A stretch of DNA of 64,000 nucleotides from NCBI GenBank assembly GCA_044225365.1, contig JBGAIQ010000001.1:128001-192000 (forward strand), read 5' to 3'. The notes under the pieces are model-generated. The model saw nothing but the letters and a program-made list of their open reading frames with translations. It was not told the origin of the DNA and made no database searches. Position 1 is the stretch's first letter. Every line of letters begins with the position of its first letter. Below, in pieces: positions 57,977-64,000 of the stretch. A program made the position numbers and the translations under genes. The stretch comes from Planctomycetota bacterium (GTDB lineage Bacteria; Planctomycetota; B15-G4; JADJEK01).

Positions 57977-58004
57977 TGGCCATTGGCCATTGGCCATTGG
58001 CCAT
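57977..58004. repeat. Tandem heptamer repeat (TGGCCAT)x4
   Basis: Perfect copies at 57977, 57984, 57991 and 57998, starting immediately after the femAB-like stop codon. Confidence 0.9.
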
Positions 58005-58074
58005 TCGTCGGAACGCTCTGCTATGCTCCGTCGCGATGGTGAGCATCGCAGGTGGAATCCCGGCGCGCGCGGTG

Positions 58075-58686
58075 ATGAGAATACGCAGAGCGGTCGCGAG
58101 GCGCGCCGTTCCGTGCGTCCTCGCCGCGCTCGCGGCCTGCGCGCACGCACCCGCGACGCGCGTCGACGGCGACACCACGGACAGCGCCGCCAGCGGGCGA
58201 TCGGTGGGTGGGATGCTCTCGGACTACGGTCGGGCGCGAGTCCTCGACCTGTCCGACATCGTTGCGCTTCGCATCGGCGTGGGACCCGGACTGCTCGTCC
58301 AGGCTCGCGCGACGCGATACGTCGCGCTCGGCGTCGGATCGATCGGACCCGCGCACGTGTTCAGCGGGGGCTTCCGTCCCGAGTGCTACTTCCTCGGTTG
58401 GAACGGTCGCGAAGGCGGGGTTTGGATCGAACGTCGCACGGAGTACGGGATCTCGACGTTCTATGGTTGCGAAGCCACGGGCGAGTCGCAAGCGGGCAAC
58501 GTGACGCGCTTCGGCCTCGACGGTCGACGCACGTTCGACGTGGGAGCCGAGGCGTACTTGGCTCTCGTCGGACTCGCGGTCGACGCCCGTGTGGAAGAAG
58601 CGCTCGACTTCGTCGCCGGGATCTTCGGCTTCGATCCGGAAGGGGACGACACCGCCGCGGTCAGCGTCGCTCGAGCGAATCCCTGA
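58075..58686 (+). CDS. Hypothetical lipoprotein
   Basis: Arg-rich N-region plus lipobox LAAC; beta-rich body ending EALDFVAGIFGFDPEGDD. Confidence 0.65.
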   Translation: MRIRRAVARRAVPCVLAALAACAHAPATRVDGDTTDSAASGRSVGGMLSDYGRARVLDLSDIVALRIGVGPGLLVQARATRYVALGVGSIGPAHVFSGGFRPECYFLGWNGREGGVWIERRTEYGISTFYGCEATGESQAGNVTRFGLDGRRTFDVGAEAYLALVGLAVDARVEEALDFVAGIFGFDPEGDDTAAVSVARANP

Positions 58687-60355
58687 TCGTCTGAACTTCG
58701 GCGGGCGTGATCAGGCCCGTGCTCTCGAACTGCGGCAAGAGTCCGAGGAGGATCGCTCTTTGGCGCGCGTCGGTTCGTCCGGCGGCGGCGCGCTTCAAGA
58801 CCGCCCTGGCTTCGTCGCGGGTCACGACCGAAGGCGGCCCCTTCGCATCGGGGCGATAGAGGCCGAGTAGATCGATCAAGGCATCGATGCAGTGCGGATT
58901 GCGCCCACTCGGGTCGAGCGAAGCAGCGGCGCGATAGTGCTTCGCGGCTTCTAGCGCGTCGCCGAGGCGTGCAGCCGCGTACTCACCGAGTTCGAGATGC
59001 GCTTCGAGCGCGAAGAGATGTTCGGGATCGACCTCGAGCGAGCGCTTCCAGTGATGCACGGCTCCGCGTTGATCGTCGCTGACGTATTCGAGCTTGCCCT
59101 CGGCCTTCAGCAATCCAGCGACCTGGAACTGCGCGAACCCGGAAGTCTCGTCCTTCTCCGCGGCGTCGCGCCAGAGGGCGAGGTCGTCGTGGAAGACGGG
59201 TGTGCGAGCGAGAGTGAGCCCGAACAAGGCGATCAGGAGCACGACGACGACGCTCGTGCGAAGGAGAGTTCGGGGCGCGAGCCCCGTGGCGATCAAGACG
59301 CAGAGGCCGGCGCTCGGGAGATACAGGAATCGATCGCCGAAGATCCAGCCGATGGGCACGAGATGGAGGAACGGGATCATCCCCGCGAAGAAGAGGATGG
59401 CGCTGCCCCGTACCAGGGTCGACCGGCGCTTCCCGAGAATCATGACTGCGCAAAGGAGGAGTGCGATCCCGAGCAGGAGCAACACCGCGCCGCCGAAGCT
59501 GCGAGGTTCGTAGTAGATCGAGAGCGACGTCGGCAGGAAGAAGTTCGAAACGGTCCTTCCGAGCACGCGCACGCCGAGTTCGACGCGCGACAGGAACGGC
59601 AGACCGCCGAGGACGGGGTCGTTCGAGACGTCGGGCGAGAAGCGACCGAGCACGGCGACGCGGACGAGGATCAGCGCGATCGTCGTGAACGCGAGGGTGG
59701 CGAAGCGCGCGGCGATCGCGCGGACGGGAAGGCGCTCGAAGACGTCGATGGCGAGCAACGCGAGCGGGAGCGGTAACGCGCTCTCCTTCGCGAGGCTCGC
59801 CGCGGCATACGCCGCCGCCATCGCGACGAGGCGAAGTCCGGTGCGCCCGGCCGCGGGCGGCCGCGCGAGGAGGGCGAGGAGCGCGAAGATCGTGGCGAGG
59901 ATCTCCGCACGTCCCACGATCCACGCAACGGCTTCGACGTGGATCGGATGCACGGCGAAGATCGCTCCCGCGGTCGCCGCGACCGGAGTCGAAGCGCCGA
60001 GCCGGGCCGCGACGAAAACGAGCAAGGCCGCCGCCAGCGCGTGCGATGCGATGTTGACCTTGCGGAATGCAGGGGCGTCGAGACCGGTCGACTCGTACTG
60101 CGCTCGATAGGTCCACACCGTGAGGGGGCGAAAGAGTCCGAGTTCGGGCCGATTCGGCGGCGTGGGGGAGGTGAAGGGCGACGCGTCACCGATCACGGCT
60201 GAGTTCTTCACGACGTACGTTTCGTCGTCGAGCACGAAGCTCCCGCTCGCCGCGACGACGTACGCGAGGATCGCCAGGATTGCGACGAATACCGCCGCCA
60301 CGGCGAGATGGCGGCGGTTCATGGCGGGCTCGAGCGGTGGGTTCGACGTCGTCAT
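58661..60355 (-). CDS. TMTC-like (DUF1736-type) GT-C membrane glycosyltransferase with C-terminal TPRs
   Basis: FVLDD...V.N, FRPLT, N...H, FAVHPIHVEAVAWIVGRAEIL, KESA, DRFLYLPS, W/F.DD..LW, then TPRs. Confidence 0.85.
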   Translation of the reverse strand: MTTSNPPLEPAMNRRHLAVAAVFVAILAILAYVVAASGSFVLDDETYVVKNSAVIGDASPFTSPTPPNRPELGLFRPLTVWTYRAQYESTGLDAPAFRKVNIASHALAAALLVFVAARLGASTPVAATAGAIFAVHPIHVEAVAWIVGRAEILATIFALLALLARPPAAGRTGLRLVAMAAAYAAASLAKESALPLPLALLAIDVFERLPVRAIAARFATLAFTTIALILVRVAVLGRFSPDVSNDPVLGGLPFLSRVELGVRVLGRTVSNFFLPTSLSIYYEPRSFGGAVLLLLGIALLLCAVMILGKRRSTLVRGSAILFFAGMIPFLHLVPIGWIFGDRFLYLPSAGLCVLIATGLAPRTLLRTSVVVVLLIALFGLTLARTPVFHDDLALWRDAAEKDETSGFAQFQVAGLLKAEGKLEYVSDDQRGAVHHWKRSLEVDPEHLFALEAHLELGEYAAARLGDALEAAKHYRAAASLDPSGRNPHCIDALIDLLGLYRPDAKGPPSVVTRDEARAVLKRAAAGRTDARQRAILLGLLPQFESTGLITPAEVQTIRDSLERR

Positions 60356-60435
60356 CCGCGAGGTTCTCGAGTCGTTCCGGACCGCGACTCGGGGCAGGGC
60401 ACACGGGCCGGATTTCGCCCAAGCCCCGCATCAGC

Positions 60436-60463
60436 AAAAGTCAGGCCCGCCGGAAGCCGATAG
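60436..60463 (+). promoter_or_regulatory. Sigma-28-like promoter motif AAAAG-N15-GCCGATAG
   Basis: Closest to the classical TAAA-N15-GCCGATAA consensus; 98 nt upstream of the DUF5658-like gene. Confidence 0.55.
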
Positions 60464-60561
60464 GATGGGACCGACCCCGCGGTTCGTCGTCTCCTGGATT
60501 CCGATCGGCGCCGGGGGTCTGCACGGCGTCCCGTCGGGTGACTCGCCAGCTGGAGATTCGC

Positions 60562-61044
60562 GTGACTGAATCCGCATCGCCCGAACCCGCACCGCGTTCC
60601 TGGTCCGAGCGCGGGCCCGATCGACGCAAGCGTCCGACTCGGATGTTCTCCCGCTACACGTTCTTCGGGGGCCGAAGGCGGCACGTCCGACGCGACTCCG
60701 AGCGCGAAGGCGCGTTCGTCGATCTGTACGAGCCACGGCTCGCCCTGCTCGTCTGCGCCTTCTTCTTCCTCACGGTCGTCGACTCCGTGTCGACGGTGAT
60801 CTACCTGCGCAAGGGTGGCTCGGAGCTCAATCCGATCGCGCAAGCGATGCTCGATCACGGGGAAGTCGCCTTCGTGTTCATCAAGGGCGTGCTGACGATG
60901 ATCTGCTCGCTCTTCGTGCTCCTGCACAAGAACTTCCGCTACGCGAACGTCGCCCTGGGCATCGGTTTCTCGTTCTACTTCGCGCTCGCGATCTACCATC
61001 TCGTCCTGCAGATCCATGCCTGGGATCGCGTCATCTCCGGCTGA
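60562..61044 (+). CDS. DUF5658-like membrane protein
   Basis: DRR..PT...SRY...GRRR..RR, FVD.Y, D...T...L..GG.ELNP, three TMs; GTG with GGAG RBS. Confidence 0.7.
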   Translation: MTESASPEPAPRSWSERGPDRRKRPTRMFSRYTFFGGRRRHVRRDSEREGAFVDLYEPRLALLVCAFFFLTVVDSVSTVIYLRKGGSELNPIAQAMLDHGEVAFVFIKGVLTMICSLFVLLHKNFRYANVALGIGFSFYFALAIYHLVLQIHAWDRVISG

Positions 61045-61146
61045 GATCGTTCGACCCCGCGCTCAACGAAAAGAGTCGGTGAGGAGGTCCGACGATTCAT
61101 GTACGGCTCGAACGGTCGGAGGCCTGGCCGAATCGTGAACGGTCAC

Positions 61147-61920
61147 TTAGGACGACGCCAACTCGCCTTCGAGATCCGCCGACCGCCGCGCGATCAGGGG
61201 CCACGTCACGTTCCGCGCGCGCTCTAGATCCTCGGGGAAGTCGATCTCGATCCACGGCAGTCCCGCGCTCGAAATCGCACGAATCGGATGCTCTCCGCAC
61301 ATCGCGTCGAACGCACGCGGAGCCCAGGCGTTCACCTGGCCTTCCGTGATCGTGAGGCGTTCGGCTTCGCGCCGCAACCGCTGGGCGCCGAGCTGCGAGA
61401 ACTTGACGACGCCGAGATTCTCGCCGTCGTACGAACCGCGCTGCAAGGTCTTGGCGAGTCCGAGCACTCTTCCGTTCTCGACCTTGACCTTCATCTCCTC
61501 GTCACCGAGCGCGGGATTCGGCTCGTAGAGCAGTGCATCGGGGAAGGGGGAGCGGACGAGCCGCAGCAGCAGTTCGGGATGGAACAGGACGTCGGCGTTG
61601 GTGAGGACGAAGCCTCCCGGCGCGGGTCCGAGCTCGGCGAGCGCGAGGTGGAGTGAGTAGAGGGAGTTCGTCGTGTCGTAGATCGGGTTGCGAACGAAGC
61701 GGGCCCTCTCGTCACAGGCCGACTCGACCATCTCCGCGAAGTAGCCGGTGACGACGACGATGTCGGAGATTCCAGCAGCCCGGAGTGAATCGATCTGGTG
61801 CTCGATCAGCGCGCGTCCGCCGACTTCGAGGAGGCACTTCGGACGGTCGGCGGTGAGGTGTTGGAGGCGGCGGGCGCAGCCAGCGGCGAGGAGGATGGCG
61901 GAACGCGGGGGCTCGGTCAC
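61147..61920 (-). CDS. Phosphocholine/phosphonate cytidylyltransferase family (LicC-like NTP transferase)
   Basis: ILLAAG...RL..LT.DRPKCLL, VTGY, NP.Y.TTN..YSL, NADVLF, EEMKV, GE..G, WIEIDFPEDL. Confidence 0.85.
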   Translation of the reverse strand: MTEPPRSAILLAAGCARRLQHLTADRPKCLLEVGGRALIEHQIDSLRAAGISDIVVVTGYFAEMVESACDERARFVRNPIYDTTNSLYSLHLALAELGPAPGGFVLTNADVLFHPELLLRLVRSPFPDALLYEPNPALGDEEMKVKVENGRVLGLAKTLQRGSYDGENLGVVKFSQLGAQRLRREAERLTITEGQVNAWAPRAFDAMCGEHPIRAISSAGLPWIEIDFPEDLERARNVTWPLIARRSADLEGELASS

Positions 61921-62045
61921 TGTGTGGGGTCCAACTTTCTCACGGATCGTAGAGGCGCCGGGATGCGGAGAACAGTTCCTTCAGCGACCGGCGGCCACGG
62001 AAGCTGCGCGGTACGCCGTCGAGGTCGTTCGACACGAACTGCGCC

Positions 62046-62100
62046 AAAAAAGTGAGGATGCGGTCGGAGACGTGGGTCAGACGTACTCCGCCGCATCCTC
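62046..62100 (-). terminator. Intrinsic terminator on the minus strand
   Basis: GAGGATGCGG/CCGCATCCTC 10-bp stem extended by CGGAG/CTCCG and ACGT/ACGT, followed on the minus strand by ACTTTTTT. Confidence 0.7.
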
Positions 62101-62395
62101 GTCAACGATGTTCTCGAACCCCACGACGACTTCTTCTCGCCGACTGCATTACGTTCCGTCCAAAGGAGGATCGGCGGGTTCGAGGCACCGCTTTGTGCTG
62201 AATGCGGGTCTTTTCGGAAAGCCGACCGCGCCAAGTGAAGTCCCGAGCGCAGATCGGACCCGGAGTTTACCTCTTCTGCCGCCATTGGGTACCGGATGTC
62301 TGGGGATTGCACGCGATACCCTGATCGGTCGGGATTTTCCCGACATCTACCCAACGGCGTCCCCGCGACGGCCCGGGTGAAGAAAGCTCGAACCT
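62046..62395 (-). ncRNA. Candidate structured RNA (sRNA or leader), family unknown
   Basis: Several nested helices whose mismatches are G-U on the minus strand; ends in the terminator; no credible ORF. Confidence 0.45.
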
Positions 62396-62402
62396 TTCCG
62401 TG

Positions 62403-62454
62403 CACGTCAAATTTAAGGTGGTAACTTTGACTTTCACGTCAACGTTCGTAGGAT
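62403..62454 (+). promoter_or_regulatory. AT-rich promoter/operator upstream of the MerR regulator
   Basis: TTGACT-N16-TAGGAT; TTGAC-N6-GTCAA palindrome 62427-62442; CACGTCAA repeated at 62403 and 62435. Confidence 0.55.
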
Positions 62455-62562
62455 CCTTGTCGATCTTCTGGAGTAGCCGATGTTTCGGAACGGCGGTCCG
62501 AAACGCTTCGAGCTCAGGGCCCAGCACTTCTTTCGCGACCGCACCGGAGCGTCACTTACGTC

Positions 62563-63042
62563 ATGGACGAGACCCTCGACAACAACCTCGTGAAGATCGG
62601 TGACTTGGCGCGACTCGCCGAAGTGACGACGAGGACCGTGCGCTTCTACGAAGACCTGGGACTGATCCAGCCCACGACCCGCAGCGTGGGAGGATTCCGC
62701 CTCTACGAAGTCGAACAGGCGGATCGGTTGCGGGCGCTGCTCAAGCTCAAGGAGGTCGGGTTCAGTCTCGACGACATCCGCGCCTATCGGGAGCTCGCGA
62801 ACGAGGGGGCGAACGCGCTCACGGTGATGACTCGCTTGCGCGAGCGAATCACTTCGGGCGCTCAGCAGTTGCGCGACCGGATCGGTCGCCTGCAATCCGC
62901 GCTCGAGGACCTCGAACGCACGAAGGAGACCCTCGCCGCTTGTCACGGCTGCGACGAGAAGGTCTACGACCGGAATTGTCACGCCTGCTGGAAGCAACTC
63001 GCGGGCGGAAATCTCCCCGACGGATTGAAAGCCGTGATCTGA
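62563..63042 (+). CDS. MerR-family transcriptional regulator with C-terminal CxxC-x8-CxxC
   Basis: KIGDLARLAEVTTRTVRFYEDLGLI.P..RS.GGFRLY HTH, GFSLDDI, coiled coil, CHGCDEKVYDRNCHAC. Confidence 0.92.
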   Translation: MDETLDNNLVKIGDLARLAEVTTRTVRFYEDLGLIQPTTRSVGGFRLYEVEQADRLRALLKLKEVGFSLDDIRAYRELANEGANALTVMTRLRERITSGAQQLRDRIGRLQSALEDLERTKETLAACHGCDEKVYDRNCHACWKQLAGGNLPDGLKAVI

Positions 63043-63109
63043 CCATGGCCGTTCCAGCCCCCGCGCAACACGACACCGCGATCTCAGCGAACCGACGGAG
63101 CGGAAACGA

Positions 63110-64000
63110 ATGACGTCGCTACCTGCCAGTACCGATCTCCTCGAGCAGATTCGCCGTCGCGGATTCGTGCGCGGCGAAGAACTCGATCGCCTCCTCGACG
63201 GGAACGCACGAGGTTTCGAATCGCTGGTGAAGTCACTGCTCTCGGCGTTGAAGCGCGTCGTGGTGCAAGCAACGGACGCCGCAACGACCGCGGCCGAGAA
63301 GGAAGCCGCTGACGCTCTCGACGACGGTTGGGACTTCGACTTCCTGCTGCGAGGCGAAGCGCGCAACAGCGCGCTCTCGACCTACATTCGTGAAGTGCTC
63401 GCGATCCCGCACATGCGCCGAGAGGACGAAGTACGGCTCGGCAAGCGGTTCGAATTCGTTCGCCGGCGGTTCTATCACGCGATCCTCGCTGGCGGCGTGT
63501 CGGGCAAACACGCCCGAGCGATCCTCGATTACAGTCGCTTGCGGCCGTTGCTCGACGAACCCGAATCGCCCAAGTCCAACAAGTCGGTCGAAACGACCGA
63601 TGCCGCGATCGCGGCCGATCCCGTGTTCCGTGCGCTCCCTCGGGGACCCAAGCTCGTTCCCATCCGCCGCGCCTGTGCGGAGTACAACGCGGTCCGTGAA
63701 GAGTTCGTCCGGCGGAATCTGCACGTCGTGATCGCCGCCGCCGCGGCCTATCGCACGTACGGCGTACCACTCCTCGACATCATCCAGGAGGGCAACGCCG
63801 GACTCATTCGAGCCGTCGAGAAGTTCGATTGGCGGAAGAACGTGCGATTCCGGACCTATGCGACCTTCTGGATCCGACAGGCGATCGAGCGCGCGATCGC
63901 CGCGAACAAGGGAATCGTGCGCGTGCCGAACTACCTCCAACAAAAGCTGCGGCGATTGCGGCGCGAGGGCAAGATCCCGCGCCGGAACGAGGAGACTTCG
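63110..64000 (+). CDS. Sigma-70 family RNA polymerase sigma factor (RpoD/RpoS-like group), 3'-truncated by the window end
   Basis: Translated by hand: region 1.2 LSTYIREV..IP.M.REDEVRL; region 2 NLHVVI..A..Y...G..LLDIIQEGNAGLIRAVEKFD.RK..RFRTYATFWIRQAI.RA....IVRVP. Confidence 0.9.
   Translation, partial: MTSLPASTDLLEQIRRRGFVRGEELDRLLDGNARGFESLVKSLLSALKRVVVQATDAATTAAEKEAADALDDGWDFDFLLRGEARNSALSTYIREVLAIPHMRREDEVRLGKRFEFVRRRFYHAILAGGVSGKHARAILDYSRLRPLLDEPESPKSNKSVETTDAAIAADPVFRALPRGPKLVPIRRACAEYNAVREEFVRRNLHVVIAAAAAYRTYGVPLLDIIQEGNAGLIRAVEKFDWRKNVRFRTYATFWIRQAIERAIAANKGIVRVPNYLQQKLRRLRREGKIPRRNEETS

Follow-up and report, generated by a model that had tools for sequence, protein, structure and literature searches.

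The DNA considered here is a stretch of 64,000 nucleotides (nt) from a Planctomycetota bacterium, which we call the window and which corresponds to G000:C95:128001-192000, G000 being the genome that we refer to as the own genome. A nucleotidyltransferase gene on the minus strand of the window is separated from a divergent operon for a MerR-like regulator and a sigma factor by an intergenic gap (Table 1), in which the G+C content is 0.54-0.61 as against 0.63-0.70 in the flanks. This gap carries a real, conserved, non-coding and structured element of the minus strand, which is present in a single copy in the own genome and belongs to no described family. Computation supports its non-coding nature, its strand, its fold, its conservation, its covariation and the class of its terminator. 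We propose, at roughly even chances, that the element is a stand-alone small regulatory RNA (sRNA).

Folded as minus-strand RNA, the whole 361 nt has no equal among 100 shuffles (z = -2.94), while for the plus strand 12 of 100 shuffles are as good (z = -1.13); moreover, in the relatives' hairpins the wobble positions make G-U pairs only if the minus strand is read. The strand given in a preliminary description of this locus is thereby upheld. The same shuffling test, which that description had named as a possible refutation, comes out differently for the two parts of the sequence: none of 200 shuffles folds as well as the core at 62046-62240 (z = -3.47), whereas 61 of 200 do as well as 62241-62402 taken alone (z = -0.50), which is no better than chance. 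Since the fold signal lies entirely in the 3' half, the structured RNA is about 195 nt long, shorter than the 350 nt originally proposed. Thus the notion of a minus-strand, non-coding, terminator-ended RNA stands, but that of a single structured RNA of 350 nt does not, only the 3' 195 nt being structured and conserved. The bases of the 5' helices drawn earlier (62242-62248 with 62371-62377, 62280-62291 with 62348-62359, and 62295-62300 with 62342-62347) can pair, yet all three helices fall in the part without a fold signal, and the arm at 62348-62359 carries at least four differences in near relatives, with no compensation among the differences listed. A switch had also been suggested, in which a second CTCGAACC (62387-62394) would compete for an arm of the helix that we call P1; this copy is altered at 62387 and 62390 in two near relatives (X3 and X4, introduced below), and we have dropped the idea.

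Table 1. Features of the gap and its flanks in window coordinates
Feature	Position	Strand	Remarks
Nucleotidyltransferase gene (NTP_transf_3)	61147-61920	-	Pfam PF12804, 67.2 bits; downstream of the RNA element, same strand
Intergenic gap, 642 nt	between transferase gene (61147-61920, -) and MerR-like/sigma operon (62563 onwards, +)
-10-like TACGAT	61946-61951	-	25 nt upstream of the transferase start
Conserved structured core (stem-loop 1, linker, terminator hairpin, U-tract)	62046-62240	-	minimum free energy (MFE) -81.1 kcal/mol
U6 tract after P2 (AC between)	62046-62051	-	site scored -29.0 in the genome-wide scan
P2 terminator hairpin	62054-62100	-	-31.8 kcal/mol; apical loop CUGACCC at 62074-62080
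P1 3' arm, GGGUUCGAG	62113-62121	-	pairs with 62176-62184
Optional local hairpin H1 (CGGCGA / UCGUCG), loop GAAGAAG	62124-62142	-	in the MFE structure
Purine-rich motif GCGAGAAGAAGUC	62128-62140	-	inside the P1 loop; core GCGAGARG invariant
C-rich loop segment GAUCCUCC, anti-Shine-Dalgarno-like	62165-62172	-	kept in own, L055 (GGUCCUCC) and g6 (GAUCCCC)
P1 5' arm, CUCGAACCC	62176-62184	-	pairs with 62113-62121
Segment GAGAAGAAG			part of stem-loop 1
Variable stretch: fast-evolving 5' RNA leader or untranscribed spacer	62241-62404	-
Second TTGACGTG box (TTGACGT)	62403-62410	-	3' of the candidate RNA promoter
Candidate RNA promoter: TTGACG (62437-62442), 20-nt spacer, TTAAAT (62411-62416)	62411-62442	-	read from sequence
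MerR-like/sigma operon promoter-like site TTGACT-N16-TAGGAT, dyad TTGAC-N6-GTCAA	62427-62454	+
MerR-family regulator gene	62563-63042	+	followed by the sigma gene
RpoD/RpoS-like sigma gene, 429 amino acids (aa)	63110 onwards	+	3' of the MerR-family gene

The core folds into two independent stem-loops, of which stem-loop 1 is closed by P1 and stem-loop 2 consists of the hairpin P2 with its U6 tract. The 60 nt upstream of the purine-rich motif of stem-loop 1 form a duplex of -29.3 kcal/mol with the linker in the own sequence (z = -3.29, p = 0.010), in support of P1. Stem-loop 2 looks like an intrinsic terminator by its sequence, being a G+C-rich hairpin followed by a U-tract on the transcribed strand, and both its earlier placement at 62054-62100 and its stated distance of 125 nt from the transferase start codon, a GTG at 61920, proved correct. 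A simple terminator scan of 61800-62700 returned no site and did not list P2, because its stem is interrupted by bulges. When hairpins followed by T5 were counted over the genome, with hairpins followed by A5 as the control, we obtained 83 against 44 at -18 kcal/mol or stronger, 23 against 3 at -26 kcal/mol, and 11 against 0 at -29 kcal/mol or stronger, the own site being included in the last group. Canonical intrinsic terminators seem to be rare in this genome, yet real. Within the 6.5 Mb scanned, 14 of the 83 sites at -18 kcal/mol or stronger lie within 150 nt after a crude gene end.

Could the sequence instead be read as protein? Translation of the 162-aa frame at 61917-62405, which the preliminary description had named as grounds for giving up the RNA, is unsupported: Pfam gives no match to the frame, its third-position G+C is 0.58, no conservation was found by tblastx among the syntenic gaps, and near relatives carry one-base insertions at 62363/62364 inside it. 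In X3 and X4 a change at 62344 removes the ATG of a shorter frame of 65 aa (62149-62346). The earlier statement that no known family signature can be recognised is borne out as well, since the Rfam check gave nothing real. With Rfam 15 (4227 models), the region 58000-64000 gave three matches at E <= 10, all far below gathering (18.1 against a threshold of 70, 17.9 against 78 and 12.3 against 40), and the six syntenic loci gave a single match at E <= 5, away from the element (30 against 98).

Conservation and covariation

The near relatives are represented by contigs of three DNA runs, X3, X4 and X5, that cover the stretch; the differences counted from them are bounds, given as at least so many or as among the differences listed, and are not full counts. 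The comparison was confined to these three and the RNA run X17; X1 and X2 (word shares 1.00 and 0.97) may be the source of this DNA, and the word shares of X6-X16 and X18-X21 are small. Over 61800-62238 the X3 contig (record 2) has 16 differences, at least 12 of them at 61942-62039, and X5 has 15, with the same 12; therefore at most four fall in the 199 nt of 62040-62238, which are at least 98% identical. The flanks differ by 12-19%, with at least 12 differences in the 98 nt of 61942-62039 and, in X3, at least 17 in the 89 nt of 62302-62390. The block at 62391-62456, which holds promoter and operator, shows one difference among those listed, at 62416, and 61943-61983 shows none among those listed, as against at least 11 in 61984-62039. 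There are thus four conserved islands, namely the promoter region of the transferase gene, the core of the RNA, the block with the divergent promoter and the coding sequences, and the DNA between them evolves fast.

At greater distance sequence similarity fades, and BLASTN of the region against 60 relatives returned short chance matches only (best E 0.0015). Synteny, however, is kept. All 11 other family genomes have the MerR-like gene, and the transferase gene is divergent from it in 10 of the 14 loci tested, the own locus included, and also in genome G008, across a contig break. The syntenic gaps, 333-1008 nt long, have only two blocks in common between genera, namely the MerR operator/promoter and GCGAGAAGAAG(Y)C, and within stem-loop 1 conservation between genera comes to 8-13 nt only. 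All 12 syntenic sequences, from 11 of 12 family genomes and one metagenome contig, nevertheless contain the purine-rich motif together with a strong hairpin. GCGAGARG, which is sited in the P1 loop and forms a conserved accessible site there, is invariant in all of them, and in each the hairpin stands 5-27 nt 3' of the motif with an energy of -31.8 to -48.3 kcal/mol, its stems being largely unrelated in sequence. The apical loop CUGACC(C) recurs in seven of the 12 (genera g1, g4 and g6, and the metagenome contig L055) over inner stems that differ in sequence. Genus g7 has the transferase gene without synteny and without the element.

The own sequence was compared with L055, whose MerR-like protein is 80% identical and whose sequence aligns with the own one without gaps through the helices; the stretch 62241-62404 is unalignable between the two. 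L055 was the one locus that a metagenome scan gave, and a scan of genome contigs with a single generic MerR pattern yielded one close relative, which is identical to L033. Between the own sequence and L055, four of the nine P1 pairs are changed on both sides and none is broken, so that the helix of 62113-62121 with 62176-62184 is present as first described. P2 differs by one compensatory change from A-U to G-C and by one G-U, and H1 by two one-sided changes between G-C and G-U, with all pairs kept. In total 66 of 66 cells pair (100%), as against 33-48.5% when the partners are slid.

With three g6 sequences added, five of the nine P1 pairs are changed on both sides and 92.9% of cells are paired, while H1 is weak in g6 (85.7% of cells paired). 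Over the whole set, 15 pairs show double changes, compared with 7.1 +/- 1.6 in shuffles (none of 500), and 93.4% of cells pair, compared with 38-52% when slid; this alignment was fitted to a model, which favours structure, and reverse-strand copies of P2 make up two of its seven rows. A MAFFT alignment of all 11 segments put the P2 arms out of register and was not used for pair counts. We also compared the sequences without any alignment. Complementarity between the 60 nt upstream of the motif and the linker is significant (p <= 0.03) in six of 11 sequences (own, L055, g4, g2 and both g3), and P1-like complementarity around the motif is not above shuffles in g5 or g6.

Built from the own sequence and L055, the model R1 detects the three g6 loci where synteny places them (E 1.9e-4, 1.5e-3 and 9.7e-3 in 46 kb) and g3 and g4 weakly (E 0.019 and 0.06); on the g5 loci it found nothing at the right place. 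In its search of 61 whole genomes, five matches besides the own copy (E 0.006-0.07) were taken as noise; the one inspected, at G008:C173, lacks a transferase gene and does not resemble the g4 locus. Searches with patterns of the motif were uninformative in the own genome and in the 12 family genomes, in which coding GAG-AAG-AAG codons dominate: the own genome has 32 matches of CGAGAAGAAG-N2-4-TCG, of which the 31 others are covered by open frames of at least 348 codons, and the motif shows no genome-wide enrichment, with 143 matches against 182 for the control.

Candidate promoters and neighbouring genes

As read from the sequence, the candidate RNA promoter would place the 5' end near 62404, close to the 62395 of the preliminary description, and would give the RNA a variable leader of 160 nt. 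L055 has the same layout, TTGACG-N20-TTGAAT-TTGACGTC; among the other syntenic gaps compared, the promoter was not found in this form in other genera. In own and L055 it overlaps the promoter of the MerR-like/sigma operon together with the dyad TTGAC-N6-GTCAA, which we take to resemble the HspR inverted repeat. HspR is also among the NCBIfam matches of the MerR-family protein, at 39.6 bits and thus under the cut-off of 105. The operon's site, in the form TTGACT-N16-TAnnnT with the dyad, recurs by our own reading in five other genera (g2, g4, g5, g6 and g7; L030, L032, L035, L037 and L041) and was looked for in g3 without being found. Compared with the MerR-type layout, in which a spacer of 19-20 bp holds the dyad between -35 and -10, the operon's own spacer is 16 nt, and the minus-strand candidate has a spacer of 20 nt (own and L055) with the dyad overlapping the -35 rather than lying in mid-spacer. 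We infer that the RNA may be co-regulated with the MerR-like gene, in this genus only.

A TAnnnT box stands 25-34 nt 5' of the transferase start in 11 of 11 sequences, and an ATTT(Y) box 25-26 nt further upstream in the five genera g2-g6 (our reading). A TAAACT box shared with L055 (62264-62269) was considered as another possible -10 but not used, since the contigs of X3 and X5 break there. A TGAAACAT box seen in g2, g4 and g5, and inverted in g6, was set aside for want of a consistent position.

The gene downstream had been called a cytidylyltransferase, a label that is not established: the protein is an NTP_transf_3 member, and every one of its NCBIfam matches is under the curated cut-off. 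Many unrelated contigs of X3-X5 match the window only at 61867-61901, 35 nt in the 5' end of its coding sequence, and at higher depth; this is a conserved nucleotide-binding motif common to other organisms. The MerR-family protein ends in four cysteines, CxxC-x8-CxxC, of which C142 is almost invariant and the other three (C127, C130 and C139) fully invariant in 11 MerR-like orthologues, and this pattern suggests a metal or redox sensor. In the 5' untranslated region of its gene, at 62483-62505 on the plus strand, an inverted repeat GTTTCGGA-N7-TCCGAAAC could form an mRNA hairpin. The loci L035, L036, L040, L042 and L043 were compared with the window for a gene of a DUF5658 membrane protein (60280-61044, plus strand), which in the own family is convergent with the transferase gene. 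In family f5 the DUF5658 gene stands directly 5' of the MerR-like gene on the same strand; therefore the transferase gene and the RNA element look like an insertion into an older DUF5658-MerR-sigma arrangement.

A proposed stand-alone RNA and its alternatives

What might such an RNA do? We suppose that its functional part is the 3' portion of about 195 nt, from 62240 down to 62046, in which stem-loop 1, closed by P1, would present a large loop with the C-rich stretch and the invariant purine-rich motif. P2 and U6 would end the transcript about 125 nt before the transferase gene, which would use a promoter of its own. A partner, either a pyrimidine-rich RNA or a protein that binds RNA, would be contacted through the exposed purine-rich loop, to which this genus would add the CCUCC stretch and the P2 loop CUGACCC; the action would presumably be in trans. 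Transcription most likely starts at the TTGACG-N20-TTAAAT site, and since this site and the operator of the divergent MerR-like/sigma operon overlap, the RNA would be released at the same time as the regulator and the sigma factor.

Several observations weigh against a stand-alone RNA. Every occurrence of the element lies 5' of the transferase gene and on its strand, and by our reading only g1 and g3 have a clear U-tract after P2, with C/U-rich tails in g5 and g6. A 208-nt contig from an RNA library (X17; 61908-62115, depth 2.7), from a 90%-identical relative, spans P2 and reaches the transferase start; it fits read-through better than termination, although it could be carried-over DNA, and its lack of cover from 62116 onwards is no evidence of an RNA end. 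No promoter is common to all genera, and over 61 whole genomes R1 recovers the own copy only, so that the family-wide picture is one of synteny and manual reading. In g5 an mRNA leader carries a 22/24-nt copy of the motif just before the Shine-Dalgarno sequence, which shows it to be capable of acting in cis. No target was found, and the start regions of the transferase and the MerR-like gene have no specific complementarity to the motif. Finally, we found no Hfq gene in the own genome (94% complete), and an Hfq-dependent class II sRNA, with ARN repeats and a U-tail, was rejected on that account.

The g5 copy deserves a closer look. It is a second one in that genus (L136:1030-1075 in G004:C452 and L137:1036-1082 in G009:C940), agrees with the genus's primary copy at 22 of 24 nt, and is flanked by a -10-like TAGACT on one side and, on the other, by the ribosome-binding site of a gene whose product is a secreted, beta-helix-like protein of 343 aa; paralogues of this gene in the own genome have no motif upstream. 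It leads to a speculation that we regard as rather unlikely, namely that GCGAGAAGAAG in the loop is the recognition site of a new RNA-binding regulator of this Planctomycetota family, and that the RNA, co-released with the sigma factor from the MerR/HspR-like operator, titrates this regulator off mRNA leaders. The target leaders, that of the g5 beta-helix-like gene for example, would then carry the same hairpin, and the RNA would be a CsrB-like sponge with a new motif.

The most serious competitor is a cis-acting 5' leader of the transferase gene, an attenuator or riboswitch in which stem-loop 1 with the motif would be the sensor, responding to a ligand, a protein or an RNA, and P2 a regulated terminator, with read-through expressing the gene. 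The invariable position upstream of that gene, the helix-closed domain directly before a terminator, the read-through contig and the g5 leader all speak for it, as does the complementarity of the own loop segment CCGAUCCUC, and of the C-rich segment, to the 5' arm of P2 (p = 0.005). However, such complementarity reaches p <= 0.02 in just three of 11 sequences, own and two of g3, with the 5' arm concerned in own only (one of 11) and the 3' arm in the two g3 sequences only, so that a conserved antiterminator is not found. Only 8-13 nt of the supposed sensor are kept between genera and Rfam has no match for it, each of the 11 sequences has the -10-like box 3' of P2 and equally far from the start codon, within the range given above, and g7 keeps the gene without the element. 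Moreover, the spacer between P2 and the transferase promoter is the most variable part and tolerates in G005 (L034:605-772) an insertion of 168 nt with 28-nt inverted repeats, 96% complementary, that the two other g6 genomes lack and that resembles a miniature inverted-repeat element. It is because of the missing antiterminator, the promoter-like block 3' of the hairpin and this insertion that we lean towards a free sRNA rather than a leader, which we consider possible though doubtful; both readings could hold if early termination in a leader yields the sRNA.

Three further explanations were weighed. P2 might merely insulate the transferase promoter from divergent transcription, the purine-rich block being a protein-binding DNA site, so that there would be no functional RNA at all. 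Strong hairpins of unrelated sequence at one place have the look of fast-evolving terminators, the 5' part is without constraint, and at the second g5 locus the motif stands beside a -10-like TAGACT, as an operator would; but P1, which encloses the motif, keeps pairing through four to five double changes, a constraint at the level of RNA, identity in near relatives extends over all 199 nt and thus beyond hairpin and motif, the CUGACC loop is kept over differing inner stems in three genera, and the motif has no dyad symmetry. We hold this explanation to be unlikely. A short leader peptide, for which the motif would be the ribosome-binding site and whose translation would open the terminator, seems very improbable. 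By our reading, a GTG 5-8 nt after the motif (62120-62122 in own) does open a 15-codon frame in own and in the three g6 sequences, and the frame stops at the UGA of the CUGACC loop in P2; yet L055 and g4 have no in-frame start there and g5 has no such frame, the three g6 peptides differ by non-synonymous changes only, the differences between own and L055 follow the pairing of P1 and not codons, and tblastx gives no signal. Least credible of all is the 6S-like RNA that the preliminary description had invited as a comparison, one that would bind the RNA polymerase holoenzyme, possibly that of the neighbouring sigma factor. Like 6S RNA (RF00013), the candidate is a non-coding RNA of a few hundred nt beside a sigma-factor gene, here the RpoD/RpoS-like one, and long irregular helices can be drawn for its entire 361 nt; but there is no 6S match in 58000-64000 at E <= 10, the core is two separate stem-loops and a terminator and not an end-paired rod around a central bubble, and the 5' half that such a rod requires is neither conserved nor structured. 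The genome has a 6S RNA above the cut-off on another contig (G000:C26:1468-1653, minus strand; 53.3 bits against 46.4, E 2.1e-9).

Comparison with known systems

To our knowledge no riboregulator has been characterised in Planctomycetota, and we know the regulatory RNAs of the phylum as almost unexplored; the listings and abstract openings of the literature that we consulted hold nothing on this element or on sRNAs of Planctomycetota. If transcription is confirmed, our analysis would provide a family-specific structured RNA with a defined conserved loop, a genetic link to a stress-type regulator/sigma operon and to the gene of a sugar-nucleotide enzyme, and thus a way into the study of how these bacteria control expression after transcription. 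As a candidate it is of an ordinary kind and implies no new principle.

As in riboswitches and attenuators, a domain closed by P1 is followed after 12 nt by a terminator hairpin, and a metabolic gene of the same strand lies downstream. The element differs from them in that only a 13-nt motif is kept between genera, no alternative between terminator and antiterminator is conserved, and a promoter-like block lies between terminator and gene. A second comparison is with RsaE/RoxS and the actinobacterial 6C RNA, in which C-rich loops pair with ribosome-binding sites. In g1 and g6 the loop of stem-loop 1 begins in a similar way, with GAUCCUCC or GAUCCCC; however, among the syntenic sequences compared the C-rich stretch is missing in g2-g5, and the universal element is purine-rich. 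None of these families is matched in Rfam.

Closest to the stand-alone RNA that we propose are the enterobacterial sRNAs encoded divergently from the genes of their own regulators, OxyS with OxyR, GcvB with GcvA and SgrS with SgrR. Here the phylum is another one and the sequence unrelated, the regulator belongs to the MerR family and a sigma factor is co-transcribed with it, no Hfq gene was found, the promoter link is confined to own and L055, and the conserved site is purine-rich and not a typical anti-Shine-Dalgarno seed. What the systems have in common is their architecture: a terminator-ended non-coding gene stands head-to-head with the gene of a transcription factor, and in this genus the candidate promoter overlaps the regulator's operator.

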